DNA of 64,000 bases from a virus. Shown piece after piece: positions 491 through 47,746 of the stretch (position 1 is its first letter; the number at the start of each line of letters is the position of its first letter). The translations under genes were made by a program, and so were the position numbers. The stretch lies in IMG/VR virus record IMGVR_UViG_3300042988_001343, positions 1 to 64,000 of that record, one strand, 5' to 3'. The notes under the pieces are model-generated. The model worked only from the letters and a program-made list of their open reading frames with translations. It made no database searches and was not told where the DNA came from.

Positions 491-568
491 TTGACAATTA
501 ATTAGTACTCATTTATAATGGGATGGTAATCGAGAGATACTATCCCATTTGTTTTTGGAGTATTAAAA
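491..568 (+). promoter_or_regulatory. sigma70-type early promoter cassette (PeSL-like) with hairpin
   Basis: TTGACA 491-496, 17 nt spacer, TATAAT 514-519; inverted repeat gggatggta/tactatccc follows. Confidence 0.6.
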
Positions 569-718
569 ATGATCAAACATCTATACGATATCCTTGTTGC
601 AAGAAAAGCACTCCGTACATTAAGCCTTTTCTTGGATCGTAATCCCAGTCTTGGTACTTCTACTGCAGAATACAAAAAGATTGTAGAAACAATGGATATT
701 TTGAGGAAGTACTCATGA
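569..718 (+). CDS. small hypothetical protein (49 aa)
   Basis: ATG after promoter; ATGA overlap with next ORF. Confidence 0.4.
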   Translation: MIKHLYDILVARKALRTLSLFLDRNPSLGTSTAEYKKIVETMDILRKYS

Positions 719-1380
719 TGGAAAAGCGAGATAAATTGTTTGCTAAATTTGGTGAACCTACATCTCTGGATGAACTTGGTCATTGGGTCATCGAATGTTT
801 AGAGGACTATGAATGTACCTTTTATAGTCAAAGAAAGAATAAAAAATCAAAGCCAGTTGTTTTAGGTTTGGTATGGAAGATTGAGGAGCAAAGGTCGGTT
901 AGTAATAGTCACAATAGACCAATCAATGGTGTTACTAATTGGAGGGCAGAATTGGATAAACCTAAGGGATATCCTGGGTTTTATGGTAGAGTTTGGGTAA
1001 GATATTCTAGTACTCTAGATGGATTTGGAAGTGATCCATTTGGAAATACATTTACTCATACTGGAACTGGTGGATTTGGTGCATATGATGGAATATGGAA
1101 AGATGTTTGTTCAGCACACTGGAAACGTCATGGTCATAGGAAATTGAGTAAATTAGATTATCCAGAGACCCAATGCTATTCTTGGGATTATCGATTTTTC
1201 CTTAGCGATTTTCCAAAGCTACAAGAAACCATCGAACAAGAGAAGTTGTTGAAACAGATAGGTGAAGATCATAGTCCAATTGCACACTATTTTCTTTGGG
1301 AAGATCCAGTGACGGTAGCTGCAGATAAAGCATTTATTGAGGAAACCAATAAAATCCTTCAATCCACGAGTAAATCATGA
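715..1380 (+). CDS. hypothetical protein
   Basis: 221 aa ORF, translational coupling (ATGA) to next gene. Confidence 0.55.
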   Translation: MMEKRDKLFAKFGEPTSLDELGHWVIECLEDYECTFYSQRKNKKSKPVVLGLVWKIEEQRSVSNSHNRPINGVTNWRAELDKPKGYPGFYGRVWVRYSSTLDGFGSDPFGNTFTHTGTGGFGAYDGIWKDVCSAHWKRHGHRKLSKLDYPETQCYSWDYRFFLSDFPKLQETIEQEKLLKQIGEDHSPIAHYFLWEDPVTVAADKAFIEETNKILQSTSKS

Positions 1381-1706
1381 GTTTCAAAACTAAAATCAGA
1401 ATGGACCAAATCAACTGGGGTCCAAAAGAATGTGATCGATTAGCTGCAGTCATCTTTGCCAAAGAATTAAGAGAAATGGGTTATATCAAGACAAGTAATG
1501 CTTATTGTAGTGTATCTAGAGTAGATCGTGAAGATTGGCTTGATGTACTAGCTAGAGAGCGTCACTGTAGCAGAGCAGACTTCTATAACTATGACGGATC
1601 TGGTGTTGGACATCAGCACTATGAATATTACTGTCGTGTATACAGTAAAGATACCCTAACTGTACATCCAGAAATTATTAGATGCATGTCTACTATTGAC
1701 TTTTAA
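1377..1706 (+). CDS. hypothetical protein
   Basis: 109 aa ORF. Confidence 0.5.
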   Translation: MSFKTKIRMDQINWGPKECDRLAAVIFAKELREMGYIKTSNAYCSVSRVDREDWLDVLARERHCSRADFYNYDGSGVGHQHYEYYCRVYSKDTLTVHPEIIRCMSTIDF

Positions 1707-1754
1707 TAGTACATGAGTTATAATGTTTTTACTTGATAAACTAAAGGAAATAAA
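1696..1754 (+). promoter_or_regulatory. sigma70-type early promoter
   Basis: TTGACT 1696-1701, 17 nt, TATAAT 1719-1724. Confidence 0.55.
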
Positions 1755-2240
1755 ATGTTTGGTTATGTAAAAGAAAGTAAGATGCAAGTTGTTATCGATG
1801 GACTTCGGTCTCGTGCAGAGTGTGCTGAAGTTAAAGCAAAGAAGTTAGAAGCCGAAGTAAAGTCACTCAAACAACAATTGGCGGCTGCTCACAGTGCACT
1901 ACAGACTGCACGAGACAACAGTCTAGCTAAACCACTCCAAGTAGAACGAATTAAAGAAACTCCGGCAGTTGGATATCCAGTTTACAATTACCCAAGTACA
2001 GCACCAGCCCCAATCTTTGTACCTGATACCACAATCTACAATACACCCGTATTTGAAGCACCTATCGATCCTGTTGACTTTAATAAAGTAAGTACAGTAA
2101 AGGAAGAAGTTTCCTCATATGTTGCTCCTTCTAAGTCATACGATTTTGGTTCAGACTCTAGTTCCTCTTGGAGTAGCTCAGATTCCTCAAGTTCTTACTC
2201 ATCAAGTGATTCTGGTAGCTCAAGTTCTAGCAGTGATTAA
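1755..2240 (+). CDS. hypothetical protein with Ser-rich low-complexity C-terminus
   Basis: 161 aa ORF; C-terminal SSSWSSSDSSSSYSSSDSGSSSSSSD. Confidence 0.55.
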   Translation: MFGYVKESKMQVVIDGLRSRAECAEVKAKKLEAEVKSLKQQLAAAHSALQTARDNSLAKPLQVERIKETPAVGYPVYNYPSTAPAPIFVPDTTIYNTPVFEAPIDPVDFNKVSTVKEEVSSYVAPSKSYDFGSDSSSSWSSSDSSSSYSSSDSGSSSSSSD

Positions 2241-2254
2241 TTTTCTGTAACCTA

Positions 2255-2315
2255 TTGACATTATTTCTCCTGTGAGTTATAATTAACCCATAGATTGATT
2301 AACAGGAGAAACAAA
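2255..2315 (+). promoter_or_regulatory. PeSL-like early promoter cassette (subfamily tagattgatYaacaggagaaacaaaATG)
   Basis: TTGACA 2255-2260, TATAAT 2278-2283; inverted repeat ttctcctgt/acaggagaa brackets -10 and supplies SD. Confidence 0.65.
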
Positions 2316-2681
2316 ATGGCACGAGAAGCTAAAGAACAACGGTTGGCCCGCGAAGCTGCTGAAAATGCTGCATATGAAGCTGAACAGAAAGCCACTTATC
2401 CTCAGCGCTTGATGGCCATGCTTGAACGTGCTACCAAGGTTGATTTTGAACTCACTGTCCAAAGTGGGTGGTTTGTTGTTACAGAACGCAATAATCGTGA
2501 CAAAGAGGAATATGAATTCAGTCTCGAATATGGCGCAACAAATGAATCCAATTTAGAGGGACTGGGGTGGGATGTACGATACAAAGAGCAGGAACAAGAG
2601 GAAGCACAACGTAAGTATCAACTTCGCCAAAATGCACTAGCTAAATTGTCCAAAGAAGAACGTGAAGAGTTGGGAGTATAA
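2316..2681 (+). CDS. hypothetical protein (acidic/coiled)
   Basis: ATG 2316 with AGGAGA SD; ORF-track start 2295 is TTG inside promoter cassette. Confidence 0.55.
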   Translation: MAREAKEQRLAREAAENAAYEAEQKATYPQRLMAMLERATKVDFELTVQSGWFVVTERNNRDKEEYEFSLEYGATNESNLEGLGWDVRYKEQEQEEAQRKYQLRQNALAKLSKEEREELGV

Positions 2682-2682
2682 A

Positions 2683-2979
2683 ATGACAAGTCCACGGGAA
2701 GATGTTGCTCAAGAATTATTGGAAACCATCAAATTCGGTGGTTTGGATGAAGTTTATGGTGCATCACTCTCAAAAGAAGTTGATGCAAAGGGTAAATCAT
2801 TCTACTCAGTAACATTCTGCAAATCCCGTGTACTTGATGGTGTCATCAAGGTATATTCAGAACGATTTGTGATGGTAAAATGGCAGACTCAGTATCGGGA
2901 TCTTCCGGCAAAGGGTCAGGTTGTATGTAAGAATTCTTGGGATGCAAAATCCTTAATTCAATCTTTTATTCGGGCTTAA
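2683..2979 (+). CDS. hypothetical protein
   Basis: ATG 2683 after GGAG; ORF. Confidence 0.5.
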   Translation: MTSPREDVAQELLETIKFGGLDEVYGASLSKEVDAKGKSFYSVTFCKSRVLDGVIKVYSERFVMVKWQTQYRDLPAKGQVVCKNSWDAKSLIQSFIRA

Positions 2980-3781: not shown

Positions 3782-4225
3782 ATGAAATTTTACGACCTCT
3801 CCGAATCCAATCAAAATCAACTGTTGAATGCTACTCAATATCTGATGTCGACAGTATTCAATGTATATGGTAAAGAGGAGGGTGAGCGGGTATGGGGTGA
3901 AATTTCGGATGTACTTGGTGAGGGAGTCCGAGCAGAGATTTTGATGCGGGCACTATCTGGGAAAGCCATTCCTAATACTAAAATGTGCCTAGTTAAAATT
4001 ATACCAGGTGGACAAGGGAAATATTCTAACCAAACCAATCGAGTAGCTTTCATCAAAAAGATGAGGGAAGTTTCAGGATGTGGTCTTAAAGAGGCAATTG
4101 ATGCTGGAAATATGCTTGACGGTGGCAATGAAGTCAGACTTGAGATGGAGACTAAAAACTTCAATGATTATGAACACTACCTTCGACAATTTGGTATGAC
4201 TATTGAGTTCACTATTGACAATTAA
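3782..4225 (+). CDS. protein with ribosomal L7/L12 C-terminal-domain-like region
   Basis: VAFIKKMREVSGCGLKEAIDAGN resembles L7/L12 CTD [23 protein letters not shown]. Confidence 0.45.
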   Translation: MKFYDLSESNQNQLLNATQYLMSTVFNVYGKEEGERVWGEISDVLGEGVRAEILMRALSGKAIPNTKMCLVKIIPGGQGKYSNQTNRVAFIKKMREVSGCGLKEAIDAGNMLDGGNEVRLEMETKNFNDYEHYLRQFGMTIEFTIDN

Positions 4226-4272
4226 TTGTTCTTTGTATACTATAGACTCATAGATAAACAAGGAGCAATAAA
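4215..4272 (+). promoter_or_regulatory. sigma70-type early promoter
   Basis: TTGACA 4215-4220, 17 nt, TACTAT 4238-4243. Confidence 0.5.
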
Positions 4273-4485
4273 ATGAAAGTCAAAGGTTATATTGTTAGTT
4301 ACTGGTACCAAATTCCCGGTTGGGATGAATTTGGTAAAGAAGAAATGGATTTTGTGACAATCAAAGCTGATTCTGTAGATGAAGCAAAATCTATTTTTAA
4401 TGAAATGGTAAAACATGAACAAGCTAAGAGAACTCGTGCTTCTCTTAGATTTTCTTTGGTTGTCGATTCTATCAAAGAGCTTTAA
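4273..4485 (+). CDS. hypothetical protein
   Basis: 70 aa ORF with SD AAGGAG. Confidence 0.5.
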   Translation: MKVKGYIVSYWYQIPGWDEFGKEEMDFVTIKADSVDEAKSIFNEMVKHEQAKRTRASLRFSLVVDSIKEL

Positions 4486-6046: not shown

Positions 6047-6078
6047 CACAAAGGACCGAAAGGTCCTTTTATTTTGTA
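6047..6078 (+). terminator. rho-independent terminator
   Basis: hairpin aaaggaccgaaaggtccttt followed by ttattttg. Confidence 0.7.
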
Positions 6079-6085: not shown

Positions 6086-6145
6086 TTTACAAATATTACT
6101 CTCTTTGTTATAATGAACTCAATCGATCAAACACTGGAGTAGAAA
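6086..6145 (+). promoter_or_regulatory. PeSL-like early promoter (subfamily gaactcaatcgat)
   Basis: TTTACA 6086-6091, 17 nt, TATAAT 6109-6114, GAACTCAATCGATCAAACA leader. Confidence 0.6.
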
Positions 6146-6547
6146 ATGTACAGCCTAATTGAACTTACAAATGATGCAGGTTGCCATGGTGGCTTTTATA
6201 TTTTCACAGTAATCACATCCATTTGGTTGGTTGTTGCATGGTGGTGTTGGGAAGATTCTCCAATGTTTTCTGTCGTGTCTAGTGGAATTATGATTGCACT
6301 TACTCTCTTCGGTGCTTCTGTTAGTTTTGATCCGAAAAACAACATCCCGATGGTCAATACACCAGTTACTGCTAAATTTGTAAAATATGTAGCTGAAGAA
6401 CAAACTTACAAATGTGGAACAAAGAATATGTCTACTTGTTACACTAGCAAGGTTTATGGTCAATTTGAAACTCCTGAAGGTATGGTTGCTTTAGAAGTAA
6501 ACAAGAATGTACCTATCCCGACATATGTAACTTTGTACAAGAACTAA
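6146..6547 (+). CDS. membrane protein
   Basis: two hydrophobic helices near N-terminus. Confidence 0.5.
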   Translation: MYSLIELTNDAGCHGGFYIFTVITSIWLVVAWWCWEDSPMFSVVSSGIMIALTLFGASVSFDPKNNIPMVNTPVTAKFVKYVAEEQTYKCGTKNMSTCYTSKVYGQFETPEGMVALEVNKNVPIPTYVTLYKN

Positions 6548-6805: not shown

Positions 6806-6869
6806 TTGACATTTATTGTTCTACTTGATACTATTAACTCATGGGAAATACAACACAAGGTAGAACGAA
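6806..6869 (+). promoter_or_regulatory. sigma70-type early promoter with imperfect inverted repeat
   Basis: TTGACA 6806-6811, 17 nt, TACTAT 6829-6834; gttctacttg/caaggtagaac. Confidence 0.55.
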
Positions 6870-7052
6870 ATGTGGGTAGTATACAAACAAGATTCTTTAA
6901 AGATCCGTCCTAGCAAAGTGATCGAACAACTCTGCAAGACCAAGAAGGAAGCAGAAAGTGTAGCCAAGTATGAATCTAAATGGCGAGGAGTATACGGTTA
7001 TAAATTCACTGTGGAAGAACTCTTTTTCGACTATGAAGGATTGGCAAAATGA
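6870..7052 (+). CDS. hypothetical protein
   Basis: 60 aa ORF. Confidence 0.45.
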   Translation: MWVVYKQDSLKIRPSKVIEQLCKTKKEAESVAKYESKWRGVYGYKFTVEELFFDYEGLAK

Positions 7053-7510: not shown

Positions 7511-7545
7511 TTGACATTTATTGTACCAATTGATACTATGAACTC
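7511..7545 (+). promoter_or_regulatory. sigma70-type early promoter
   Basis: TTGACA 7511-7516, 17 nt, TACTAT 7534-7539, GAACTCATG. Confidence 0.55.
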
Positions 7546-7581
7546 ATGATGATTAACAAGACAACGAAAGAGGGAACCAAA

Positions 7582-8043
7582 ATGAAAAAAGGTGAAATGC
7601 TTAGTGCAGCCATTCTAATTGCAACAAATGCCCACGCCGGACAATATGACAAGGGTGGCAAACCATACATCCTGCATCCTCTGGCAGTTGCAGCTCTTTT
7701 GGATCCGGTATATCGGGACGAAGAACTCTACCAAGTAATCGCTATCCTTCATGATGTGATTGAAGATACCAAGGTTACTTACCAAGAACTACGTGATGCT
7801 GGTATTTCTGAACGTGCCATCGATGGTATTAAATCTTTGACAAAAATCCCAGGTCAAACCTTTGAGGAATACAAAGAGGGTGTATTCAGCAACATTGATG
7901 CAATGATTGTCAAGAAAGCTGACCTTACTCATAATACTGATATCCGTAGACTGAAGGGCGTTACTGAAAAAGATTTCGCTCGTATGGTCAAATATCAAAT
8001 GTTCTACTTTGAAATTACACAAAAATTGGCAGATAATGGCTAA
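7582..8043 (+). CDS. small alarmone hydrolase (SpoT/MESH1-like HD-domain (p)ppGpp pyrophosphohydrolase)
   Basis: HAGQYDKGGKPYILHPLAVA...ILHDVIEDT matches RelA/SpoT HD hydrolase motifs; start could be 7546. Confidence 0.7.
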   Translation: MKKGEMLSAAILIATNAHAGQYDKGGKPYILHPLAVAALLDPVYRDEELYQVIAILHDVIEDTKVTYQELRDAGISERAIDGIKSLTKIPGQTFEEYKEGVFSNIDAMIVKKADLTHNTDIRRLKGVTEKDFARMVKYQMFYFEITQKLADNG

Positions 8044-8576: not shown

Positions 8577-8757
8577 ATTTAATTATTGTATTGGTAGCTA
8601 CTGGGAGGGTAATTCCGGTAGTATTGGAGTATATGCATACGGATCAGAAGTACACTATGGTACTATTGAAGATGCAACATCATTCTTAGAGTATGTTAAG
8701 AAAAAGTACCCAGGTGAAAATTATCAAATTTTCAAGGTTGTGCCGATTGACAATTAA
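8569..8757 (+). CDS. hypothetical protein
   Basis: 62 aa ORF. Confidence 0.45.
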   Translation: MSEFNYCIGSYWEGNSGSIGVYAYGSEVHYGTIEDATSFLEYVKKKYPGENYQIFKVVPIDN

Positions 8758-8807
8758 TTCTCCTTGAGTTATAATGAACTCATAGATTGATCAACAGGAG
8801 AAACAAA
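8747..8807 (+). promoter_or_regulatory. PeSL-like early promoter (tagattgatcaacaggagaaacaaaATG subfamily)
   Basis: TTGACA 8747-8752, TATAAT 8770-8775. Confidence 0.65.
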
Positions 8808-9011
8808 ATGGACGAAATGAACGAAAATCTGAAACAGGTTTTAGACCAAGCTTCCACTATTCGGTATTCTGGTATGGGTGATACTGTTACTATTGATTAT
8901 GAAAAATTTACTCAGCTGCTGATTGAAAAGTGTGCAGAGGTTGTGGCAGATTTGGATGGTGGGGAAAACATGTTTTCCCGTGGTATCCGTGAATACTTTG
9001 GAGAAAAGTGA
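8808..9011 (+). CDS. hypothetical protein
   Basis: ATG 8808 after AGGAGA. Confidence 0.5.
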   Translation: MDEMNENLKQVLDQASTIRYSGMGDTVTIDYEKFTQLLIEKCAEVVADLDGGENMFSRGIREYFGEK

Positions 9012-9569: not shown

Positions 9570-9809
9570 TTGTATAACAATTGTTGTATTGTTGATAGAG
9601 CTAAAACCGTGGAAATAATTAAACTGTTCGAGTATGATGCTAATCATATTTGGTTTACTAAAATGATCTTACAACTCAGAAAGGACCATGGAGGCGAACC
9701 TGCTGATTTTCCAAAATATCTCACAAACATCGGTATCATAACTGAACAGGGTGTTGCATTTGTACCAGAAGAGTTAGCATTGTTAGCAAAAATACAGTAC
9801 ACCCGTTGA
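9570..9809 (+). CDS. hypothetical protein
   Basis: 79 aa ORF. Confidence 0.3.
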   Translation: MYNNCCIVDRAKTVEIIKLFEYDANHIWFTKMILQLRKDHGGEPADFPKYLTNIGIITEQGVAFVPEELALLAKIQYTR

Positions 9810-9865
9810 CAATTAATTCTCCATTTGTTATAATGAACTCAATCGATAAACATCTGGAGATTACC
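9806..9865 (+). promoter_or_regulatory. PeSL-like early promoter
   Basis: TTGACA 9806-9811, 17 nt, TATAAT 9829-9834, GAACTCAATCGATAAACA leader. Confidence 0.65.
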
Positions 9866-10402
9866 ATGAACAAGACCCAAATCAAAAAGGCAGTCACCCT
9901 TCTGGTCGAAGAAGGTCGCAAAATCTACCCAAAATTGGCAATGCCAACTGTAGAATTTTTTGATAAGGGAGTTGTTGCAGGTCGTGCATATTACAAAGAA
10001 CATAAGGTTTCTTTTAATCTGACTCTTGCAAAAGAAAATTCAGAAGAGTTTATCAATACAATCTGCCATGAAGTAGCTCATCTTGTTACTCGTGCAGTTT
10101 ATCCAAATGCAAAACAACATCATGGCCCGGAATTCAAACGAGTATTCCTTGCCATGGGTGGTAATGGTAAACGCTGCCACAGTTATGATGTCACTAAAGC
10201 CAAACGCACGGTTGTTCGAACCTATGTTGCATATACCTGTTCCTGCCGTGAACATCTCGTTACTCCTGCAATTCATAAGAAAATTTACATCGGTGGTCAA
10301 AAATATCGCTGTAATAAATGTTCAACTGTGATTAAAGCAGTATATGAACAGACTGCACGTGGTGTATATGTAAAGACGGTCAAGAAGTCCAATAAGGCTT
10401 AA
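9866..10402 (+). CDS. SprT-like zinc metalloprotease-domain protein with C-terminal zinc ribbon
   Basis: ICHEVAHL HExxH motif; CSCREH...CNKC zinc ribbon. Confidence 0.6.
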   Translation: MNKTQIKKAVTLLVEEGRKIYPKLAMPTVEFFDKGVVAGRAYYKEHKVSFNLTLAKENSEEFINTICHEVAHLVTRAVYPNAKQHHGPEFKRVFLAMGGNGKRCHSYDVTKAKRTVVRTYVAYTCSCREHLVTPAIHKKIYIGGQKYRCNKCSTVIKAVYEQTARGVYVKTVKKSNKA

Positions 10403-10406: not shown

Positions 10407-10460
10407 TTGACATTTAATTCTAGATGAGTTATAATTAACTCATTAATTGGGAGAACTGAA
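10407..10460 (+). promoter_or_regulatory. sigma70-type early promoter
   Basis: TTGACA 10407-10412, 17 nt, TATAAT 10430-10435. Confidence 0.6.
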
Positions 10461-10619
10461 ATGAAAGTCTATTGCGTAAAACAATACTTGCAGTATGAAT
10501 TTGACTCTGTTGTTGAAATCTTCCTGTCAGAGGAAAAGGCAAAGATTCGCTCAGATGAATTACAAAAACAAGATAAGTATGTTGAATGTTATGTAGAAGA
10601 ATTCGAGGTGCAAGAATGA
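10461..10619 (+). CDS. small hypothetical protein (52 aa)
   Basis: ORF with SD; stop overlaps next start (ATGA). Confidence 0.4.
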   Translation: MKVYCVKQYLQYEFDSVVEIFLSEEKAKIRSDELQKQDKYVECYVEEFEVQE

Positions 10620-11461
10620 TTACTCTTTTTGGTGGTAACAAAGACATTCCACTGAAATGGTGGACCTTCCCAGGAGGTGAACGCAATGTAAAAATTGAGG
10701 ATCCACTGGACATTGAACGATATCGATCATTCTCAGTAAAGTGCAATTTCACTTGTTCAGATGATTTGGTTGACATGATGTTGCTGGTTAATGCTATTCG
10801 TAATGTCAATAGAACAACCAAACTCAGACTTGTTATTCCATACTTCCCATTTGCTAGACAGGATCGAGTAATGACGAACGGTGAACCTTTTGCATTACAA
10901 GTTGTGGTATCTATGATCAAGTCGTGTAACTTTGACGAGGTAGAGACTTGGGATCCGCACAGCGATGTTCTTGCTGGTATGTTTGAAGCAGGTAATCTAT
11001 CTGTACGTCCACAGTGGGAGTTGATGCACAACTTGATTCTACAACAGAATCGTCATTCTCGGTATAATCTTGCACATTCAGCTCTTGTATCACCTGATGC
11101 TGGTGCTTTGAAAAAGATTTACAATCTTGCAAAACTGATCAATCTCCCAGTCATTGAAGCTGGTAAGAAGCGTGATGTATCAACTGGCGAGATTGTTGCA
11201 ACTACAATTAATTCACCTGGGTTGGATGAATTTGCTGTCCTCTATGTTATTGATGATATCTGCGATGGCGGTCGTACTTTTATTGAGCTTGCAAAAGCAA
11301 TTAAAGCGAAGGGGTTTAGCGGGGAACTTGTTCTCTGCGTTACACACGGAATCTTTAGCAAAGGGTTGACACCCTTAGAATGTTTTGATAAAATATACAC
11401 TGTAAACAATATTAACAACGCCGATCTGGCATGGTTTAATAAAAGGAATAAAAATGTTTAA
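10616..11461 (+). CDS. ribose-phosphate pyrophosphokinase (Prs) homolog; candidate ADPR-pyrophosphokinase (Adps-like)
   Basis: VIPYFPFARQDR Prs motif and VIDDICDGGRTF PRPP-binding motif. Confidence 0.7.
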   Translation: MITLFGGNKDIPLKWWTFPGGERNVKIEDPLDIERYRSFSVKCNFTCSDDLVDMMLLVNAIRNVNRTTKLRLVIPYFPFARQDRVMTNGEPFALQVVVSMIKSCNFDEVETWDPHSDVLAGMFEAGNLSVRPQWELMHNLILQQNRHSRYNLAHSALVSPDAGALKKIYNLAKLINLPVIEAGKKRDVSTGEIVATTINSPGLDEFAVLYVIDDICDGGRTFIELAKAIKAKGFSGELVLCVTHGIFSKGLTPLECFDKIYTVNNINNADLAWFNKRNKNV

Positions 11462-12365: not shown

Positions 12366-12433
12366 TTGACAATTAATTGCTAGTTGTCTATAATGTATTT
12401 ATGATAATTTGAATTGTGAAAAGGAAATATATT
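12366..12433 (+). promoter_or_regulatory. sigma70-type early promoter
   Basis: TTGACA 12366-12371, 17 nt, TATAAT 12389-12394. Confidence 0.6.
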
Positions 12434-14564: not shown

Positions 14565-15077
14565 GTGCGCAACATTTATTTGGATTTGGATGGAGTTTTT
14601 GCAGACTTTGAAGCTAAGTTTGAGGAACTGGTTGGATTTCCATACCATCAGGATCCAGAAAAGGCTTGGTCGATCCTAGATAAGGTCGACCACCTTTTCT
14701 TGCAGCTAGAACCACTACCTAGTGCCAAATTACTATTTGATCGTATCAATGACTATGCTACATGCAATGTAAAGATTCTGACAGCCCTACCTAGACTCAC
14801 TGGTAAATTGAATACAGCAGAAGCAGACAAGAAAGCATGGGTTGCAAAATATCTTTCTGATACTATCGAAGTCATCTGTACTGACGGTTGGAAACATAAA
14901 GTTGACTACTGTCGTCACGGTGACATTCTGGTTGATGATATGGAGAGAAATACAGAGGCTTGGTTCTATCATGGTGGGATTGGTATCCATCATTCAAGCA
15001 AGAGGCCTGATTTGACAATCAAGCAACTCATTGAATTAGAAGTTCTGTCAGAAGAAAAGATTGTACAATTCGGTTGA
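14565..15077 (+). CDS. 5'(3')-deoxyribonucleotidase-like HAD hydrolase (NT5C family)
   Basis: IYLDLDGVFADFE motif I near N-terminus; GTG start. Confidence 0.6.
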   Translation: MRNIYLDLDGVFADFEAKFEELVGFPYHQDPEKAWSILDKVDHLFLQLEPLPSAKLLFDRINDYATCNVKILTALPRLTGKLNTAEADKKAWVAKYLSDTIEVICTDGWKHKVDYCRHGDILVDDMERNTEAWFYHGGIGIHHSSKRPDLTIKQLIELEVLSEEKIVQFG

Positions 15078-15134
15078 CAATTAATTCTCCACTTGTTATA
15101 ATGAACTCAATCGATAAACAAGTGGAGAAACATC
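15074..15134 (+). promoter_or_regulatory. PeSL-like early promoter, perfect 12-bp inverted repeat
   Basis: TTGACA 15074-15079, TATAAT 15097-15102; tctccacttgtt/aacaagtggaga. Confidence 0.7.
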
Positions 15135-15500
15135 ATGACATACCGTGAATACACCAAGCTGGAAAATCTCCAATCCGAATATTCTGACTTCTACAAAGAA
15201 GTTTACGGTTTCAGGCCACGCTTTATGAGTGAAGAACAGTGGAATTCCGAAGAGTGGTTTGAGGCTGAACTGAAGGTTCTGGCTGAACGAGCAAAGGTTG
15301 TCTTTGCTGAAGAAGAAGCTCGGGAACAAGCTTCCATCCAGCAGTTTGAAGCTCTGGTCGCAAAGACCATTGCTGATGGTGCAAAGAATCGTGAAACCGC
15401 CCTCCGTTGGATTATGGACGGTTCAGATGCACACGATGATTGGGATTTTCTGTGTTATGATTATAACCTCCCATACGGTTACTTCAAGGTGGCAGCATGA
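15135..15500 (+). CDS. hypothetical protein
   Basis: 121 aa ORF. Confidence 0.55.
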   Translation: MTYREYTKLENLQSEYSDFYKEVYGFRPRFMSEEQWNSEEWFEAELKVLAERAKVVFAEEEAREQASIQQFEALVAKTIADGAKNRETALRWIMDGSDAHDDWDFLCYDYNLPYGYFKVAA

Positions 15501-16561: not shown

Positions 16562-16567
16562 GGAATT

Positions 16568-16831: not shown

Positions 16832-18265
16832 ATGAATCCGATCGTGAAGTCTATCCGTAATTTTACTTCTACCGCTAATGGTGCACCAACACTGAAGTCT
16901 ACAGGTTCATCCTGTGTTGACTTATTCAGCAAGGTTGGTTCTGCTCGTCAAGTAAATGAAAATGACATTGTCAATATGTTCTACAATGCAGCAATGGAAG
17001 ATATTGATGTAGCTACTCGCATTATGTTGTGGGCCCGAGATTGTCGTGGTGGTGCTGGCGAGCGTCGTGCATACCGTATCATGCTCAAGGAATTTGAAAC
17101 TTGGTGTATGGCAAATACAAACGGTATGGAAGTAATGCAGACTGTCGTTAACAAGACTGTAGAACTTGGTCGTTGGGACGATCTATTTGTACTTGATTCA
17201 TTCTTTGAGTTGGTTATCCAAAAGATTGCTGCTCAAATCAACACTGGTGACATTGGTCTACTTGCTAAGTGGCTTCCTCGTGAAAAGTCAGCCAACAAGG
17301 CTGTTGCATTCCGATTGATGAAGGGTCTTGGTATGACTCCTAAGCAGTACCGCAAATTCTGCTCTGGTGTTATCACAACTGAAACTCTGATGTGTGCTAA
17401 GAAGTGGGAAGATATCAATCTGTCTCACGTACCATCAGTTGCTTCAGCTCGGTACCAAAAGGCTTTCGAGAAGCAGCACCCAGGTTACTATGATTGGAAG
17501 TCTGGTTTGGAGTCTGGTGTTACTAAGGTTAATGTCTCAGTATCTTATCCTTATGATGTATACCGCACATTCAAGTCTGATGCTAGCCGAGAAGTAATTA
17601 ATGCTCAGTGGGATGCACTACCAAATTACATCAAGGAGGGTGTTTCAATTCTTCCAGTTGTTGATGTTTCTGGTTCAATGTCATGCCAAGCTAGTGGTGG
17701 TCTATCTTGTATGGATATCTCCATCTCTCTAGGTGCATACATTGCAAGTAAGAATACTGGTCCATTCGCTAAGGGTATGATTACCTTCCACGAAAATCCA
17801 ACCTTCTACTTCATGAAGTATGGCATCTATGATGAGTTTTCAAACATCAAGAATCTTCCATGGGGTGGTTCTACTAACTTTGAAGCAACATACAAGTTGA
17901 TTCTGAAGCATGCAAAGAGTGTAAATGCTTCACAAGAAGATATGCCAAAGTACTTGATTGTCTTGAGCGACATGCAGTTCAATATGGCCGAGGGTCGATA
18001 TGGACATGGTCATACAAACTTCGAAGCTATGGAAAAGACATTTGCAGAGGCAGGTTACAAGATGCCACAGATGATCTTCTGGAATTTGAATGCTGCTTAT
18101 GGTCGTGATGCTCAAGTAGGAGCAAATCAACCTGGTGTAAGCATGGTTTCTGGTTTCTCTCCTTCTATCCTGAAGGTTGTTCTATCAGGTGAAGAGTATA
18201 CTCCTATCCGTGCAATGATGGATACTGTTATGGTAGATCGTTACAAAGTTCTAGAAACAGATTGA
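16832..18265 (+). CDS. von Willebrand factor A-domain protein (DUF2828-like)
   Basis: MIDAS motif VVDVSGSMS and LIVLSDMQF in C-terminal half. Confidence 0.55.
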   Translation: MNPIVKSIRNFTSTANGAPTLKSTGSSCVDLFSKVGSARQVNENDIVNMFYNAAMEDIDVATRIMLWARDCRGGAGERRAYRIMLKEFETWCMANTNGMEVMQTVVNKTVELGRWDDLFVLDSFFELVIQKIAAQINTGDIGLLAKWLPREKSANKAVAFRLMKGLGMTPKQYRKFCSGVITTETLMCAKKWEDINLSHVPSVASARYQKAFEKQHPGYYDWKSGLESGVTKVNVSVSYPYDVYRTFKSDASREVINAQWDALPNYIKEGVSILPVVDVSGSMSCQASGGLSCMDISISLGAYIASKNTGPFAKGMITFHENPTFYFMKYGIYDEFSNIKNLPWGGSTNFEATYKLILKHAKSVNASQEDMPKYLIVLSDMQFNMAEGRYGHGHTNFEAMEKTFAEAGYKMPQMIFWNLNAAYGRDAQVGANQPGVSMVSGFSPSILKVVLSGEEYTPIRAMMDTVMVDRYKVLETD

Positions 18266-24454: not shown

Positions 24455-24487
24455 TATTATGTAAGAAATAAACAAAAGGATTTAAAC

Positions 24488-29900: not shown

Positions 29901-30147
29901 ATTTGCAGAAATGAGGAAAACTGGATATTGCGGAGTACTCGAGTATGGAGAAAAAACTATATCCTTTTCCGATTGGTGGAGTGGTGAGGGACTAGACATT
30001 CGACTAGACGAAAATGGAGACAATAGTATTTCACTTCATTTGGATGACCTTCATGCTATGATGGTAATTGCTGTTGCCACCGGGTCCATCGACTTAGAAG
30101 AAGTGTTGCTAGATTCTAAAAAGTTAAAAGAATCTATGGACAAATAA
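29887..30147 (+). CDS. hypothetical protein
   Basis: ORF, ATG 29887 after GAGG. Confidence 0.4.
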   Translation: MSLFKFAEMRKTGYCGVLEYGEKTISFSDWWSGEGLDIRLDENGDNSISLHLDDLHAMMVIAVATGSIDLEEVLLDSKKLKESMDK

Positions 30148-30188
30148 ATCCTCCAGTGTTATAATGAACTCATAGACACGGAGGATTT
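30137..30188 (+). promoter_or_regulatory. sigma70-type early promoter with 8-bp inverted repeat
   Basis: TGGACA 30137-30142, 17 nt, TATAAT 30160-30165; aatcctcc/ggaggatt. Confidence 0.5.
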
Positions 30189-30401
30189 ATGGTTACTATT
30201 AGCGACAAGGCAAGATTAATCGGCGAGTTACAACGTGAGTATGATGCTGTACTTGCAGACTCTGAGAAAGTCACTGAAGAAATCAAAGCACTAACTGCAG
30301 CTTTTCAAGTAGAACTTAGAAAGTTGTCAAATAAGCAAGTTGCTAATTCTGAAAAACTGGCTGCTCTGCAAGATACTATTGTGAAAGGTATGTATGTTTA
30401 A
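30189..30401 (+). CDS. hypothetical coiled-coil protein
   Basis: 70 aa ORF. Confidence 0.45.
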   Translation: MVTISDKARLIGELQREYDAVLADSEKVTEEIKALTAAFQVELRKLSNKQVANSEKLAALQDTIVKGMYV

Positions 30402-31264: not shown

Positions 31265-31540
31265 ATGACACTTTCTATGATGACAGATGAGCCAATCATA
31301 GAGGGTGAAACTGTCTACTGGAAAGGAGTCGAGTTACCAAAGCGAGTGGCTTGGATGATCGTGTCTAGTATCATCCTTACGTGCCATGTAGCTAACGACA
31401 ACCTACCAGATGAGTACCGAGAATTAAGGTACTATATTCAAGAACACAACTCTTGGATAGATTCATTAGTCCGACAAGCAGAAGATGAACAACAGGAAGT
31501 ATGCCAAAAATTATTTGAAAATTTTTTCCTAACCGATTGA
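31265..31540 (+). CDS. hypothetical protein
   Basis: ORF-track 31049 start overlaps upstream gene; ATG 31265 with GGAGCAGG SD more likely. Confidence 0.35.
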   Translation: MTLSMMTDEPIIEGETVYWKGVELPKRVAWMIVSSIILTCHVANDNLPDEYRELRYYIQEHNSWIDSLVRQAEDEQQEVCQKLFENFFLTD

Positions 31541-31607
31541 CAAATAATCGTCACTATTATACAATGATTATGTAGATTGATTGAACATACTTTTTCTGGA
31601 GATTACT
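31537..31607 (+). promoter_or_regulatory. sigma70-type promoter
   Basis: TTGACA 31537-31542, 17 nt, TACAAT 31560-31565. Confidence 0.5.
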
Positions 31608-32857: not shown

Positions 32858-33193
32858 ATGAATCCAAAAAATCCAAATAGTACACTCGTTCCTGATGCTT
32901 CCCAAATGTATACCACAATTACTGGTGGATTTAGTCAGGGATATGTCCCACCACAAGTAAACCAAGTACACATGGGATCAGGTGGCTCTGGTGGATACAT
33001 TAGTGGAAGTCTAGAGCTCAATAACATCAAAGAGATTCTACACGAAGTATCTAAAAGGATGTGCACGATAGAAGATAGACTTGCAATCCTCAAGCCAGAC
33101 AAAGTTCTACTCAATAAACATCCTCAGCTACAGGATGCATACAACCACTACAAATTAATGGAACAATTATTGTCTGAATCTGTAGACAAATAA
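32858..33193 (+). CDS. hypothetical protein
   Basis: 111 aa ORF. Confidence 0.5.
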   Translation: MNPKNPNSTLVPDASQMYTTITGGFSQGYVPPQVNQVHMGSGGSGGYISGSLELNNIKEILHEVSKRMCTIEDRLAILKPDKVLLNKHPQLQDAYNHYKLMEQLLSESVDK

Positions 33194-33243
33194 GTAGTGT
33201 TATGTTATAATGGTTCTATGGTAACTAATCGGGATTGAATGAA
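33183..33243 (+). promoter_or_regulatory. sigma70-type promoter
   Basis: TAGACA 33183-33188, 17 nt, TATAAT 33206-33211. Confidence 0.45.
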
Positions 33244-37479: not shown

Positions 37480-37754
37480 TGGAAGTAAAATTCAAAATTG
37501 ACTACGATTCTGACTACATCTTAGCAAAAGATGGTACTGTAATGTATCCTCCAATCCAATGGTTACACAACAATGTTGCAAGATTACAACCAAGACATAA
37601 GAGAGTAGGAAGTAAGAATTTGTTTGGTAAGGGTCATACATGGACAATAATTAGGAAGAAGTTAGACATATATCCATACAGCACAGTTAGATTTGATGAA
37701 TCTAAAGTAGATGCTGAGAAGATTTTTATGTTCACTTTACTATTTGGTGGTTGA
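37479..37754 (+). CDS. hypothetical protein
   Basis: 91 aa ORF. Confidence 0.45.
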   Translation: MEVKFKIDYDSDYILAKDGTVMYPPIQWLHNNVARLQPRHKRVGSKNLFGKGHTWTIIRKKLDIYPYSTVRFDESKVDAEKIFMFTLLFGG

Positions 37755-37810
37755 CAATAAATCCTAGACTCTTTATAATGAACTATATCTTAAAACGAAG
37801 GAAGAACAAA
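37751..37810 (+). promoter_or_regulatory. sigma70-type early promoter
   Basis: TTGACA 37751-37756, 17 nt, TATAAT 37774-37779. Confidence 0.6.
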
Positions 37811-40376: not shown

Positions 40377-40437
40377 TTGACAATTAATTCTCCACTTGTT
40401 ATAATGAACTCAATCGATAAACAACTGGAGAAACATC
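40377..40437 (+). promoter_or_regulatory. PeSL-like early promoter
   Basis: TTGACA 40377-40382, 17 nt, TATAAT 40400-40405; tctccacttgtt/aacaactggaga. Confidence 0.7.
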
Positions 40438-40641
40438 ATGGCAAAACTTATCAAACTCGAATGCAATAAATCATATGCAACCGAAGCTAATGCCATCAAA
40501 GCCGCCGAAAAGAAATATGGTGACTCCGATGATCTTCGTTACTTTATCATGCAAACCGAAGATGGTCGCTTCTTCCCTGTATTCGTAGGACAAAGTGCTC
40601 TGACCAATATGGTCCACTTTAACTTTAATGTGTTGATGTAA
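40438..40641 (+). CDS. hypothetical protein
   Basis: 67 aa ORF. Confidence 0.5.
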   Translation: MAKLIKLECNKSYATEANAIKAAEKKYGDSDDLRYFIMQTEDGRFFPVFVGQSALTNMVHFNFNVLM

Positions 40642-41759: not shown

Positions 41760-42064
41760 TGTTGGCATATCCATCTGTACCACCTCCAATGGGCGACCAA
41801 TCAGTAAAGCAGATCATCTATCATGTAAAGTCTTGGTATGGTGATATTGTACTTAGAAATCCAGGTATTACTAAGTCTTTTATAACATGGATCCCTCGCC
41901 GATGTACTCTTACTGGTGAGTGGATCTGGTTTGATTTTGTTACTAAAGTTGTAGCTAGAACAAACCATTACGATTCTATGGTGCTTGATAAACTTTGGGC
42001 TAAACATGATTCATATTACTTCAAACCAGAAAATTGGTTAATTGTAGTAATGAGTAGACAATAA
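41759..42064 (+). CDS. hypothetical protein
   Basis: 101 aa ORF. Confidence 0.45.
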   Translation: MLAYPSVPPPMGDQSVKQIIYHVKSWYGDIVLRNPGITKSFITWIPRRCTLTGEWIWFDFVTKVVARTNHYDSMVLDKLWAKHDSYYFKPENWLIVVMSRQ

Positions 42065-42103
42065 ATCAAGCATTGTTTATAATGAATTATTGATTAGGAG
42101 ATT
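42054..42103 (+). promoter_or_regulatory. possible sigma70-type promoter (weak -35)
   Basis: TATAAT 42078-42083. Confidence 0.35.
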
Positions 42104-43301: not shown

Positions 43302-43464
43302 TTCTCTAGGTCAACAAATTTGCGGTCAGATTGCCTTTATCTGTGACAAGATTAATACTCTTCAGGAACCACAGCGTTCCCAGATAAAGGAACTGATTGC
43401 AAGAACTATGAACCAGAGATTTCAACAGTGGGACCAAGTTCCTCTTGCTGAGGTTGTAGAATAA
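43279..43464 (+). CDS. hypothetical protein
   Basis: 61 aa ORF; start uncertain (GTG). Confidence 0.3.
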   Translation: MDSSTSSDSLGQQICGQIAFICDKINTLQEPQRSQIKELIARTMNQRFQQWDQVPLAEVVE

Positions 43465-43492
43465 GGACTTAGGTCCTTTTTCTTTATCTTTG
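43463..43492 (+). terminator. rho-independent terminator
   Basis: aaggacttaggtcctt + tttctttatctttg. Confidence 0.65.
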
Positions 43493-43494: not shown

Positions 43495-43555
43495 TTGACA
43501 ATTAATCTTAGATTGGTTATAATGTACCCATAGATTAGATTAATGGAGAAACATC
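43495..43555 (+). promoter_or_regulatory. PeSL-like early promoter
   Basis: TTGACA 43495-43500, 17 nt, TATAAT 43518-43523. Confidence 0.65.
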
Positions 43556-43771
43556 ATGGCAAAACTTTCTAAGAAACAGATTAAGTTGATTGACTCGAAC
43601 ATCAATTCTCTGTTGGTATACCAAAATATGATTACTGCTCATGTGGATCGGCCAGAAAGTGTGAGTTTATCAGTGAAATTTAGTTGGTTTAATGATGCTG
43701 CTAAAGAAATCAATAAGGAATTGGGTACATCTATTTCTCTGTACAAAACTTCCACGGGTGAGGTATACTAA
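43556..43771 (+). CDS. hypothetical protein
   Basis: 71 aa ORF. Confidence 0.5.
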   Translation: MAKLSKKQIKLIDSNINSLLVYQNMITAHVDRPESVSLSVKFSWFNDAAKEINKELGTSISLYKTSTGEVY

Positions 43772-46011: not shown

Positions 46012-46065
46012 TTGACAATATTATCAACTTATTTTATAATGTATTTTTAGGTGAAGGAATAAAAC
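46012..46065 (+). promoter_or_regulatory. sigma70-type early promoter
   Basis: TTGACA 46012-46017, 17 nt, TATAAT 46035-46040. Confidence 0.6.
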
Positions 46066-46448: not shown

Positions 46449-46597
46449 TGAAACCTCGGAATGAGAAATTACACTTCGATTTGCTAAATTGCAAGTGTGG
46501 TCCTCATTCCATCAAAGAGGGTCATAAGAAGCAAAAGCGGTCGAAGCAAAAGAAAGACTTTTATAACCAAGTGAAAAAGGAATTACATTATGGCTGA
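46448..46597 (+). CDS. small basic hypothetical protein
   Basis: 49 aa ORF. Confidence 0.3.
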   Translation: MKPRNEKLHFDLLNCKCGPHSIKEGHKKQKRSKQKKDFYNQVKKELHYG

Positions 46598-46751
46598 AAC
46601 TCAATATAAGTACCACCCAAAGAACCCAGCAAACCAAGCATTCAATGGACCTGGTCGCAAGAATCTGACCAAGCAGCGGTCGTGGTGGAATCGCAATTCG
46701 CCGACGTATTTTGCTAACCGCAAGTCGGACAAGAAGTCTAAACCAGAGTAA
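46590..46751 (+). CDS. small basic hypothetical protein
   Basis: 53 aa ORF followed by terminator. Confidence 0.3.
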   Translation: MAETQYKYHPKNPANQAFNGPGRKNLTKQRSWWNRNSPTYFANRKSDKKSKPE

Positions 46752-46752
46752 C

Positions 46753-46780
46753 AAAAGGTCCTTCGGGACCTTGTCTTTGA
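46753..46780 (+). terminator. rho-independent terminator
   Basis: aaggtccttcgggacctt + gtctttg. Confidence 0.6.
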
Positions 46781-46787
46781 GTATACT

Positions 46788-47165
46788 ATGAATCCTGTTA
46801 ACCTTGCAATTAAGCAAGCCAAGAAGGCAAATTTTAAACAGCGAGTAGGTGCTGTTATCTCCAAGGGAAATAATATTCTAGGACTTGGGTATAACCAAAC
46901 CAATCGCTATCAATCTAAAGTTAAATCTACCCATTACCCAGGATCAATGCATGCTGAAATAGCTGCAATTGTGGATGTAATGAGGAGAAATAGTCCTTCT
47001 GTACTCAAAGGATCTACGATCACTATCGTTCGACTCTTTAAGGATGATACTCCGGGTCTTGCATATCCATGTGAGGATTGCTACCCAGTAATCAAAAACT
47101 CCGGCATCAAAAAGATCAGATTTTCAAATAACGATGGTACATTTTCAACAATTAGTCTTTACTAA
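46788..47165 (+). CDS. cytidine/deoxycytidylate deaminase-fold zinc enzyme
   Basis: SMHAEIAAI (HAE) and YPCEDCYP (PCxxC) zinc-binding motifs. Confidence 0.55.
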   Translation: MNPVNLAIKQAKKANFKQRVGAVISKGNNILGLGYNQTNRYQSKVKSTHYPGSMHAEIAAIVDVMRRNSPSVLKGSTITIVRLFKDDTPGLAYPCEDCYPVIKNSGIKKIRFSNNDGTFSTISLY

Positions 47166-47350
47166 TCATATACTTATTACAAAATAGTGTAAGTTAAGCA
47201 TTTAAAGTAATGGGTAGATATCATTTGTGTCAAAAACTGACATTTGTCTGTCCCAAATATCTGATTATAAAGATGAATTTTTAGACATTTTCGATAGTAT
47301 TCCTTTTAAAAGGATAAATACTAATTCATTCTTAAAACTAAGGGAGACAC

Positions 47351-47701
47351 ATGATGCTGGAAACAGCTATACTGTGCCTAGCCCTGACCGTACTTCATGA
47401 ATCTAGAGGAGAACCAATTGAAGGTCAGGTAGCGGTTGCCCAAGTTATTCTAAATCGTGCAGGCGGCGATGTGAATAATGTTTGTGCTGTAGTAAATGCA
47501 CCGGGGCAATTTAAAGGCTTGAACTTAAAGAAAAAGTTCACATACGACATATCATCCACAAAACAGCTAGTCTCAGATGTGATAGAGGGAAACTATCCAG
47601 ACTATGCAAAGGGTGCTGTATTCTTTAAACACATCCATGCTAAACCATGGAAATACAAGTTTGTCACTAGGATCGGCAAACATAATTTCTACAAAAAGTA
47701 G
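47351..47701 (+). CDS. SleB-like cell-wall hydrolase domain protein
   Basis: LHESRGEPIEGQVAVAQVILNRAGG...GQFKG. Confidence 0.65.
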   Translation: MMLETAILCLALTVLHESRGEPIEGQVAVAQVILNRAGGDVNNVCAVVNAPGQFKGLNLKKKFTYDISSTKQLVSDVIEGNYPDYAKGAVFFKHIHAKPWKYKFVTRIGKHNFYKK

Positions 47702-47711
47702 AACAAATCGA

Positions 47712-47746
47712 TTGACATTAAATCATTACTCTAATATAATGTACTC
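47712..47746 (+). promoter_or_regulatory. sigma70-type early promoter
   Basis: TTGACA 47712-47717, 17 nt, TATAAT 47735-47740. Confidence 0.6.

Follow-up and report, generated by a model that had tools for sequence, protein, structure and literature searches.

This work concerns the early region of a virus represented by positions 1 to 64,000 of the IMG/VR record IMGVR_UViG_3300042988_001343 (this 64,000-nucleotide (nt) stretch is hereafter called the window), in which many same-direction promoters are accompanied by copies of a short cassette whose inverted repeat brackets the -10 box and reaches the Shine-Dalgarno (SD) sequence of the following gene. An earlier reading made from the letters alone (the sequence-only reading) had likened these copies to the promoter-early stem-loop (PeSL) cassettes of T4-type phages and had regarded the palindrome as a feature of the DNA. 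Here, we propose, with a probability of roughly 0.6, that the cassette hairpin acts in read-through RNA as an anti-SD/SD switch that senses the origin of a transcript. This proposal is supported by the promoters, the complementarity of the two arms, the co-variation of these arms, and the predicted difference in SD accessibility between transcripts of different origin.

In about a dozen cassettes, the 17-nt promoter spacer carries an anti-SD, consisting of TTCTCC and 3-8 additional bases, whose complement is the SD region 30-45 nt downstream; in the proposed mechanism, the pairing would take place in RNA rather than in DNA. RNA from any upstream promoter of the nearly terminator-free array would read through the cassette and, containing both arms, would form a 7-19 bp hairpin that buries the SD, such that ribosomes could not load independently on the first gene of the unit. 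RNA from the cassette's own promoter would have its start within the loop, contain no 5' arm, and keep the SD accessible. For a gene behind such a hairpin, its own immediate-early promoter would be the sole or main source of translated RNA; the gene would be insulated from cumulative read-through along the array, and would be off once the early promoters are switched off. As a possible extension, the untranslated read-through stretch might be open to Rho-dependent polarity or decay, which would create an insulator without a U-tract terminator; the principle of Rho polarity on untranslated RNA has been reviewed previously (PMC2988021).

The window has a G+C content of 37-38%, and its first 51.5 kb are dense with small open reading frames (ORFs) on the + strand. 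The exact promoter pattern TTGACA-N17-TATAAT occurs at 17 sites, all of which are on the + strand, compared with 0.12 expected by chance. When up to one mismatch is allowed, 28 sites are found on the + strand (27 of them within 491-47746) and 2 on the - strand. Three extra promoters possess a TACTAT -10 box (4215, 6806 and 7511), and the total array appears to comprise approximately 30 co-oriented, near-consensus sigma70-type early promoters. The three TACTAT promoters are grouped within 3.3 kb and may represent a subclass differing in strength or timing. The TGA within the TTGACA -35 box serves as the stop codon of the upstream ORF at 9807-9809, 15075-15077, 18263-18265, 21407-21409, 22314-22316, 31538-31540, and 37752-37754; gene ends and promoters thereby seem to overlap by design. 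Convincing intergenic intrinsic terminators on the + strand precede only three promoters (6086, 19462 and 43495), and terminator-like hits between positions 20 and 40 kb are at chance level (10 found versus 10.5 expected from shuffled sequence). Since about 30 promoters are co-oriented and terminators precede only three of them, read-through RNA should carry both arms of the cassettes it crosses.

A profile built from the best copies was searched with nhmmer, and a copy was considered full-length if it was homologous from the -35 box to the ATG. A total of 13 full-length homologous cassettes (E 1e-9 to 4e-21) and 2 partial ones were detected, the other approximately 14 sites matching in the promoter part only. 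The sequence-only reading had counted about 27 cassettes, a figure that describes the promoters within 491-47746 rather than the homologous units. The cassettes were also detected by self-BLAST as internal repeats of 60-84 bp with 78-97% identity, and column-wise identity climbs from a background of ~0.3 exactly at the -35 box and falls back right after the ATG. The upstream ORF ends between -15 and +10 relative to the start of the -35 box in 12 of the 15 cassettes. The cassette may thus be viewed as a composite early-expression unit of ~60-75 bp, starting at the upstream stop codon, ending with the ATG and containing a near-consensus sigma70 promoter, an ACTCA start region, a short conserved leader, and a GGAG(A) SD. 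At positions +3 to +7 counted from the -10 box, where the start site is predicted, ACTCA is nearly invariant (15 cassettes, e.g., 15105-15109), and the conserved GAACTCAATCGAT and ACTCATAGATTGAT segments reported earlier are indeed present. In most copies the -35 box is followed by A/T-TTAAT, and TTGACA(A/T)TTAAT is also found in two of the relatives described below (L064 and L068). The conservation of ACTCA and TTAAT exceeds the known needs of promoter function.

The genes behind the cassettes are unrelated to each other, with just 2 weak paralogue pairs among 141 ORFs. Only one of 12 tested first genes after the cassette family (11 with an SD-pairing bracket hairpin plus the gene after 43495) has a Pfam hit, and recognisable enzymes (NAMPT, ligase, ATPase, phosphoesterase) stand behind several hairpin-less promoters. 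Although the sample is small, unannotatable small genes behind hairpin cassettes fit a tight, promoter-autonomous expression of takeover genes. In addition, cassette 19462 (cassettes are named by their first coordinate) is a mosaic. Its 5' half is of the 8747 type, with 1 nt different, and its 3' half is of the 6086 type, cassettes 6086 and 19462 having exactly the same leader (ATCGATCAAACACTG); the two halves are joined within the conserved -10/ACTCA core. An upstream terminator is present at both 6086 and 19462. Such a mosaic would be the product expected from recombination between cassettes.

To assess the inverted repeat, segments from the -35 box to the ATG were folded and compared with 200 dinucleotide shuffles each. 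Eleven cassettes (491, 2255, 4215, 6806, 10407, 15074, 18262, 19462, 27201, 30137, and 40377) gave z-scores of -3.0 to -6.9, with 0-2 of the 200 shuffles folding equally well. Cassettes 8747 and 9806 folded moderately better than their shuffles, 6086 and 43495 were marginal (no better), and the hairpin-less promoters at 1696, 21406, 37751, and 46012 folded worse than their shuffles (z > +0.8). The number of bracket hairpins that span the -10 box and involve the SD is therefore about 10-12; they are statistically solid as a feature and far fewer than the earlier statement that nearly every early promoter has the repeat. TTCTCC is likewise concentrated in the promoters: on the + strand of positions 1-51500, 7 of its 16 occurrences fall in the 17-nt spacers, i.e., in 1% of the 51.5-kb sequence (0.11 expected, p 4e-11). 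The repeats that had been quoted as examples were recovered within a few bases at 15085-15099/15116-15129, 27208-27226/27243-27261, and 18272-18287/18301-18316, and the copy at 40388-40402/40419-40432 proved not to be identical to the 15074 copy because of a C.C mismatch. The distal arm does contain GGAG(A), as had been noticed, and in the stronger hairpins it ends 0-5 nt before the ATG instead of the 5-8 nt originally given.

Co-variation of the arms was examined by an alignment-free test, in which the duplex energy of every spacer with every leader was calculated and cognate and non-cognate pairs were compared by permutation. This approach was chosen over a MAFFT-based pair count because the anti-SD occurs in two spacer registers and the loops are unequal in length. 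The mean duplex energy was -9.3 kcal/mol for cognate and -5.9 kcal/mol for non-cognate pairs (permutation p<5e-5), and the cognate partner was ranked first in both directions for 8 cassettes. In the subset of 14 hairpin cassettes, the corresponding values were -14.8 and -8.6 (p<5e-5). Arm cores vary between copies and every core has its matching partner, such as CACTTGTT/AACAAGTG, GATCAAT/ATTGATC, CTACTT/AAGGTAG, AAATCCTCC/GGAGGATTT, and GTTCTTTGT/ACAAGGAGC (the last including two U.G pairs); TGT and AAATCC are further differing cores with matching partners. Considering that cognate pairs bind best and that differing cores each retain their own partner, the arms co-vary, i.e., pairing was kept while the arm sequences changed. 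In addition, loops measure between 13 and 31 nt, and the centre of symmetry shifts. Arms that vary yet stay complementary around a loop of such variable length fit a folding nucleic acid better than a fixed protein site.

Partition-function folds were then compared between RNA in read-through context and RNA beginning at the predicted own start, which was placed 7 nt after the -10 box according to standard sigma70 geometry. By this geometry alone, the predicted start falls between the arms in all bracket hairpins, in agreement with the sequence-only reading, which had transcription begin inside the loop. In 11 of 26 promoter-preceded genes, the predicted unpaired probability of the SD core is 0.00-0.01 (<=0.011) in read-through RNA versus 0.49-0.96 in the own transcript, and the same behaviour was observed in only 2 of 67 genes without a promoter under equivalent truncation (Fisher p 7e-6). 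One of these two control genes is a NUMOD3 homing-endonuclease-like ORF, and homing-endonuclease genes are a class known to hide the ribosome-binding site (PMC3014915). No U tract follows any bracket hairpin in the window, and the terminator scan that marked 6050, 19428, and 43463 gave no hit at these hairpins, which are therefore not intrinsic terminators. A different hairpin, ATGGTA...TACCAT, is common to the 5'-untranslated regions (5'-UTRs) of the promoters at 491-571 and 47712-47788 and, in contrast to the bracket hairpins, would occur in their own transcripts. The features of the array are listed in the table.

Table. Promoters, cassettes and terminator-like hairpins of the early array (predicted; z, fold z-score; SD unpaired, predicted unpaired probability of the SD in long RNA / own RNA)
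Coordinates	Strand	Feature	Arms (5' / 3')	ATG	z	SD unpaired
491..571	+	Promoter, -35 491-496, -10 514-519; inner transcribed hairpin; dG -26.3	Outer arms 502-510 / 558-566 (TTAGTACTC / GAGTATTAA, with GGAG)	569	-5.8	
1696..1724	+	Strong promoter alone, without bracket hairpin			+1.1	
2255..2318	+	Full cassette	TTATTTCTCCTGT 2261-2273 / ACAGGAGAAACAA 2302-2314	2316	-4.4	0.00 / 0.94
4215..4275	+	Full cassette, TACTAT -10; two U.G pairs opposite AGGAG	4225-4240 / 4253-4269	4273	-4.4	0.002 / 0.96
6050..6069	+	Intrinsic-terminator-like hairpin and T run, 16 nt 5' of promoter 6086 (terminator scan)				
6086..6148	+	Full cassette, TTTACA -35	Weak arms 6097-6109 / 6130-6141 (TACTC / GAGTA core)	6146	-0.7, marginal	0.011 / 0.49
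6806..6872	+	Cassette, TACTAT -10; variant SD matched by variant arm; cognate rank 1	GTTCTACTT 6817-6825 / AAGGTAGAAC 6857-6866	6870	-3.2	
7511..7584	+	TTGACA-N17-TACTAT promoter, partial cassette homology, without bracket hairpin				
8747..8810	+	Full cassette; inner stem TGAGTT / AACTCA surrounds -10 box	Outer arms TTCTCCT 8758-8764 / AGGAGAA 8796-8802	8808	-1.9	
9806..9868	+	Full cassette (SprT-like protein)	9818-9831 / 9848-9860, 2x2 internal loop	9866	-2.2	0.00 / 0.52
10407..10463	+	Full cassette; main helix is a palindrome hugging the -10 box, SD just partly paired	8-bp palindrome ATGAGTTA/TAACTCAT 10424-10431 / 10436-10443	10461	-3.0	
11366..11394	+	Strong promoter alone				
12366..12394	+	Strong promoter alone, 5' of NAMPT gene				
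15074..15137	+	Full cassette; predicted start ~15109	15085-15099 / 15116-15129 (TTCTCCACTTGTT / AACAAGTGGAGAA)	15135	-5.2	
18262..18324	+	Full cassette; dG -23.8	18272-18287 / 18301-18316 (TTCTCCGATCAAT / ATTGATCGGAGAA)	18322	-6.3	
19428..19445	+	Intrinsic-terminator-like hairpin and T run, 5' of promoter 19462 (terminator scan)				
19462..19528	+	Full cassette	19469-19484 / 19509-19524 (TTATTTCTCCTT / AAGGAGAAATAA)	19526	-5.0	
21406..21434	+	Strong promoter alone			+1.7	
22313..22341	+	Strong promoter alone, 5' of DNA ligase gene				
24432..24460	+	Strong promoter alone, 5' of split metallophosphoesterase gene				
27201..27265	+	Full cassette, longest arms (17 bp)	TAAATCTCCACTTGTTT 27208-27224 / AAACAAGTGGAGATTTA 27244-27260	27263	-6.9	
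28183..28211	+	Strong promoter alone				
30137..30191	+	Full cassette, TGGACA -35	30144-30160 / 30175-30190 (AAATCCTCC / GGAGGATTT), into ATG	30189	-5.6	
31537..31565	+	Strong promoter alone, 5' of ATPase gene				
33183..33211	+	Strong promoter alone				
37751..37779	+	Strong promoter alone			+1.1	
40377..40440	+	Full cassette, 97% identical to 15074	40388-40402 / 40419-40432, one C.C mismatch	40438	-3.4	
42055..42083	+	Strong promoter alone				
43463..43478	+	Intrinsic-terminator-like hairpin and T run, 5' of promoter 43495 (terminator scan)				
43495..43558	+	Full homologous cassette	8-bp repeat ATTAATCT / AGATTAAT, not covering SD	43556	-0.5	
46012..46040	+	Strong promoter alone			+0.9	
47712..47740	+	Strong promoter, transcribed 5'-UTR hairpin ATGGTA..TACCAT, without bracket hairpin				
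49026..49054	+	Promoter-like site TTGACA-N17-TACAAT, beyond the range of the sequence-only reading				

Relatives of the virus were defined as contigs that share a 477-amino-acid (aa) DUF2828 marker protein at 55-63% identity (G+C content 39-49%), and no relative above 63% identity of this protein was present in the collections searched. These relatives have the same architecture with unrelated arm sequences. For example, a 16-bp hairpin in L068 (1632-1690) joins the spacer and an AAGGAG SD by arms unrelated to those of the window, SD-involving hairpins also occur at L068 775, L064 1125, and L058 3516, and the design is found again in L057 at 13561 and 14697. In L057, a T run comes after a hairpin that brackets the -10 box at 11461-11530, which places the promoter within a terminator. 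IMG/VR relatives at 39% marker-protein identity are without such promoters. Comparison of L064 with L068 revealed indels that are not cleanly bounded by cassettes and one cassette copy at different loci in the two contigs. Pattern scans for TATAATGAACTCAATCGAT in viral and metagenome contigs, TTGACA-N17-TATAATGAACTCA in viral contigs, and TTGACAATTAATTCTCC in viral and genome contigs gave only single chance hits or fortuitous hits in coding sequence (e.g., glutaredoxin C-termini), and these scans yielded no relative with shared cassette sequence. In phage RB49 (L063, NC_005066), the archetype among PeSL phages, the majority of stems closely surround the -10 box without engaging the SD; within its first 50 kb, 3 of 15 promoter-gene pairs have an SD that is predicted to be hidden in long RNA but accessible in the own transcript. 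At two of these pairs, on the minus strand near 46488 and 45322, an AGGAGAA SD is paired with a 5' arm located upstream of the -35 box, and because of this position of the arm, the whole promoter is in the loop at these two PeSLs. The occurrence of SD hiding in both the relatives and RB49 suggests that this design is older and wider than the phage described here.

Several observations weigh against the RNA switch. The start sites, the existence of read-through, folding in vivo, and the effect on translation are all points that we infer. The hairpin is present on just about one third to two fifths of the promoters and hence is no general requirement of the array, and many of the copies are paralogous, which makes the observations non-independent and means that complementarity may in part have been inherited. 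With unbiased scoring, the asymmetry between G.U and A.C in the helices is only 4 versus 1, too weak to prove that the RNA strand is the one that pairs; an apparent asymmetry of 11 versus 1 was rejected as an artefact of a scoring that favoured G.U. At 19462, a strong hairpin coexists with an upstream terminator, a seemingly redundant combination. Finally, 6 of the 12 hairpin cassettes have the upstream stop codon <=9 nt from the 5' arm or overlapping with it, so coupling rather than silencing is possible there, because a terminating ribosome could open the base of the stem.

If such translational coupling were the rule, the RNA hairpin would be opened whenever a ribosome finishing the upstream gene melts the stem base, and output would track the neighbouring gene. 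The upstream stop is indeed inside or beside the -35 box (the TGA of TTGACA at 9806, 15074, and 18262), TAA overlaps the 5' arm at 4215, 8747, and 30137, and the anti-SD is outermost in the 5' arm and hence the first part that a ribosome would reach. In the other 6 hairpin cassettes, however, the stop codon is 12-40 nt from the arm, past the reach of a terminating ribosome, and coupling leaves unexplained why the cassette's own promoter excludes the 5' arm; we therefore consider it unlikely.

An equally low likelihood is given to the possibility that the inverted repeat belongs to a mobile PeSL cassette and functions only at the DNA level, whether as a site of recombination or shuffling or by forming a cruciform, without a role in RNA. 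Repeats of 60-84 bp at 78-97% identity attached to unrelated genes, similarity that stops abruptly at the -35 box and at the ATG, the mosaic structure of 19462, and the cassette copy at different places in L064 and L068 are all compatible with cassette mobility. However, homologous recombination needs a repeat between copies and not an inverted repeat within one, and no indel between L064 and L068 is cleanly bounded by two cassettes. Loops of 13-31 nt are unfavourable to cruciform extrusion, and the distal arm is precisely the SD, with arms that co-vary with the SD variants AAGGTAG, GGAGGA, and AGGAGC. The sequence-only reading had concluded that the palindrome must be a DNA-level feature on the premise that only the distal arm is transcribed, and this conclusion is the weakest part of its finding: it left out read-through from about 30 co-oriented promoters, only three of which have a terminator, and it is also countered by an SD that is predicted to be paired in read-through RNA and open in the own transcript. 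Both an RNA switch and recombination can be accommodated by one conserved stretch of 65 bp.

RNase III processing, a frozen accident, and a protein operator are all less likely than the RNA switch. A role in processing or stability, with the hairpins serving as RNase III sites, 3' stabilisers of the upstream message, or attenuators as proposed for PeSL stem-loops, would suit intergenic hairpins directly 3' of the upstream stop codon, the hairpin and T run of L057, and the PeSL stem-loop of phage phi1, which cut downstream lacZ as much as a strong terminator (PMC2839356). It appears improbable in the window, where no U tract comes after any hairpin, most stems (7-17 bp) are shorter than typical RNase III substrates according to general knowledge, and the need for the 3' arm to be the SD is left unexplained. 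Similarly, it is very improbable that the complementarity has no function and is a frozen accident of one ancestral cassette copied many times. The cassettes are paralogous, and three CACTTGT copies (15074, 27201, and 40377) are near-identical, but different arm cores each have their own matching partner, the same arrangement is seen in the relatives and in RB49 although their arm sequences are unrelated, and hairpin-less promoters fold worse than shuffles. Least probable of all is an operator through which a protein of the phage or the host would switch off or activate the early promoters since, despite an inverted repeat centred near -10 / +1 and a TTCTCC/GGAGAA common to many copies, arm sequence beyond this motif differs between copies with complementarity kept, the distance between arms has a range of 18 nt and the symmetry centre moves, which disfavours a dimeric protein, and more than half of the promoters are without the repeat.

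With regard to the source virus, the window encodes a gp32-like single-stranded DNA-binding protein (50599-51474), a T4 baseplate protein, a gp5-like hub/lysozyme, an RNA ligase, a DNA ligase, and NAMPT, and on the basis of these genes it derives from a T4-related myovirus, a distant one. No near-identical DNA was detected by megablast among 50,697 phage records, and the closest named phage identified by tblastn of the tail/baseplate protein shows <=33% identity. Fragments identical to the window were found in one JGI metagenome (3300047552) and one SRA run (SRR35181315), and exact-protein look-ups gave nothing else. A scan with Rfam matched zero families anywhere in the window.

Several other features were observed in or near the array. 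Two minus-strand ORFs, 11488-12372 (294 aa) and 21514-22224 (236 aa), neither of which has a Pfam hit, are located inside the otherwise + strand early region, and a minus-strand promoter-like site is present at 7478. The intervals 10616-18265, 26083-26640, and 38160-39203 contain a cluster of NAD-salvage and nucleotide genes (PRPP-synthetase-like, NAMPT, CYTH, and NT5C) as well as genes of RNA-repair type (a DUF2828/DUF7788 protein, a 'Swiss Army Knife' RNA repair HAD domain, and an RNA ligase). A metallophosphoesterase gene (24488-26086) seems to be split into a 15-codon N-terminal fragment (MLYFTSDLHFSHIIR*, 24488-24535) and a Metallophos C-terminal part (25583-26086), between which the NUMOD3 ORF (302 aa, 24584-25492) is inserted; no group I intron was detected around the split gene by Rfam. 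The SD of the NUMOD3 ORF is hidden in a 13-bp hairpin (24504-24516 / 24571-24583). A T4-type late promoter within this hairpin (TATAAATG at 24568) was considered and rejected, as its start would be too near the ATG to include the SD.

If the switch operates as proposed, a promoter, a ribosome-binding site, and a switch for transcript origin would be packed into ~65 bp and used about a dozen times. Each small takeover gene could then have its own dose and timing within a 50-kb array of about 30 same-direction and very strong promoters, in place of expression that piles up along a nearly terminator-free array. It would also offer a compact natural part for gene insulation in synthetic operons, as well as a testable reinterpretation of PeSL stem-loops, which have so far been discussed only as terminators and recombination sites. 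A broader and rather doubtful generalisation is that PeSL-type stem-loops are translational insulators rather than classical terminators, which, through an SD hidden solely in read-through RNA, would keep the first cistron of each unit from being translated on foreign transcripts and expose these transcripts to Rho polarity or decay. In that case, co-oriented arrays would be divided into autonomous immediate-early units without U-tract terminators, the 'terminator' activity of PeSLs in lacZ fusions would have a translational basis, and part of the distinction between immediate-early and delayed-early genes in T4-like phages would be translational.

Fold-back inhibition of the transposase gene of IS10, reportedly described by Davis, Simons and Kleckner in 1985, resembles the proposed switch in that an extra 5' segment of outside transcripts pairs with the ribosome-binding site and is missing from own-promoter transcripts. 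In IS200, a terminator and an SD stem-loop shield the transposase gene from outside transcription (PMC5435999), and the stem-loop, unlike that proposed here, is also part of the element's own transcript. Both are transposons with a single copy of the device per element and not a phage early array. With respect to T4 RegB, the cassettes resemble its targets in supplying GGAG(A) as the SD of early genes, a motif that is simply the SD core and by itself uninformative on RegB; no RegB family hit was obtained with Pfam among 40 ORFs of the window, a set that covers a minority of the small ORFs and only the part of the genome that the window represents.

The closest parallels are found within the T4-type phages themselves. 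PeSLs are known from RB49/phi1, T4/PST, and KVP40/nt-1 (Arbiol et al. 2010, PMC2839356; Comeau et al. 2014, PMC4122927), and in their published anatomy a sigma70-like promoter (TTGACA-N17-TATAAT in RB49/phi1) comes with a stem-loop that in many cases overlaps the -10 box, while the 3' end bears an SD and start codon (PMC2839356). In function, PeSLs are characterised by recombination: indels and replacements that separate close genomes have their ends in the cassettes, and mini-circles arise. As an anatomical match, the earlier comparison with PeSLs was sound: a composite of promoter, stem-loop, and SD is repeated in a T4-related phage, in intergenic units that run from an upstream stop codon through TTGACA-N17-TATAAT and a stem-loop to SD and ATG, are concentrated among small genes of unknown function, and place the same cassette on unrelated genes. 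The strong sigma70-like promoter, the self-BLAST repeat, the stop-to-ATG unit, and the T4-like host genome with small unknown genes are all present, and a stem-loop in or near the promoter is present in 11 cassettes (z <= -3) and 2 weaker ones and absent from about 15 other promoters. On the other hand, published stems consist of G-run/C-run or A3-4G3/C3T3-4 and have been read as terminators or attenuators, whereas the loops described here are 13-31 nt long and the sequence signature of a terminator, a following U tract, is absent. Moreover, the 3' arm in RB49 usually comes right after the -10 box and is not the SD, which it is here. Translation and ribosomes are never mentioned in the two PeSL papers (PMC2839356, PMC4122927), and an SD-hiding role is absent from the known description of PeSLs.

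Such a role is documented for single genes of T4 (e, soc, 49, and I-TevI) and for mobE of Aeh1, where a hairpin occludes the ribosome-binding site and the promoter is inside the structure (PMC3014915). As in these T4 genes, the SD is here predicted to be sequestered in transcripts started upstream, and the own transcript would, by geometry, lack the 5' arm. The internal promoter of T4 is a late one (gp55, TATAAATA) and delays single genes, whereas the cassettes have an early sigma70-type consensus, the promoter's own spacer supplies the 5' arm, and a repeated unit is used about a dozen times. The cassettes are therefore best described as PeSL-type early units with an anti-SD/SD stem-loop that could form only in read-through RNA, a design that combines two known phage devices in a new arrangement.

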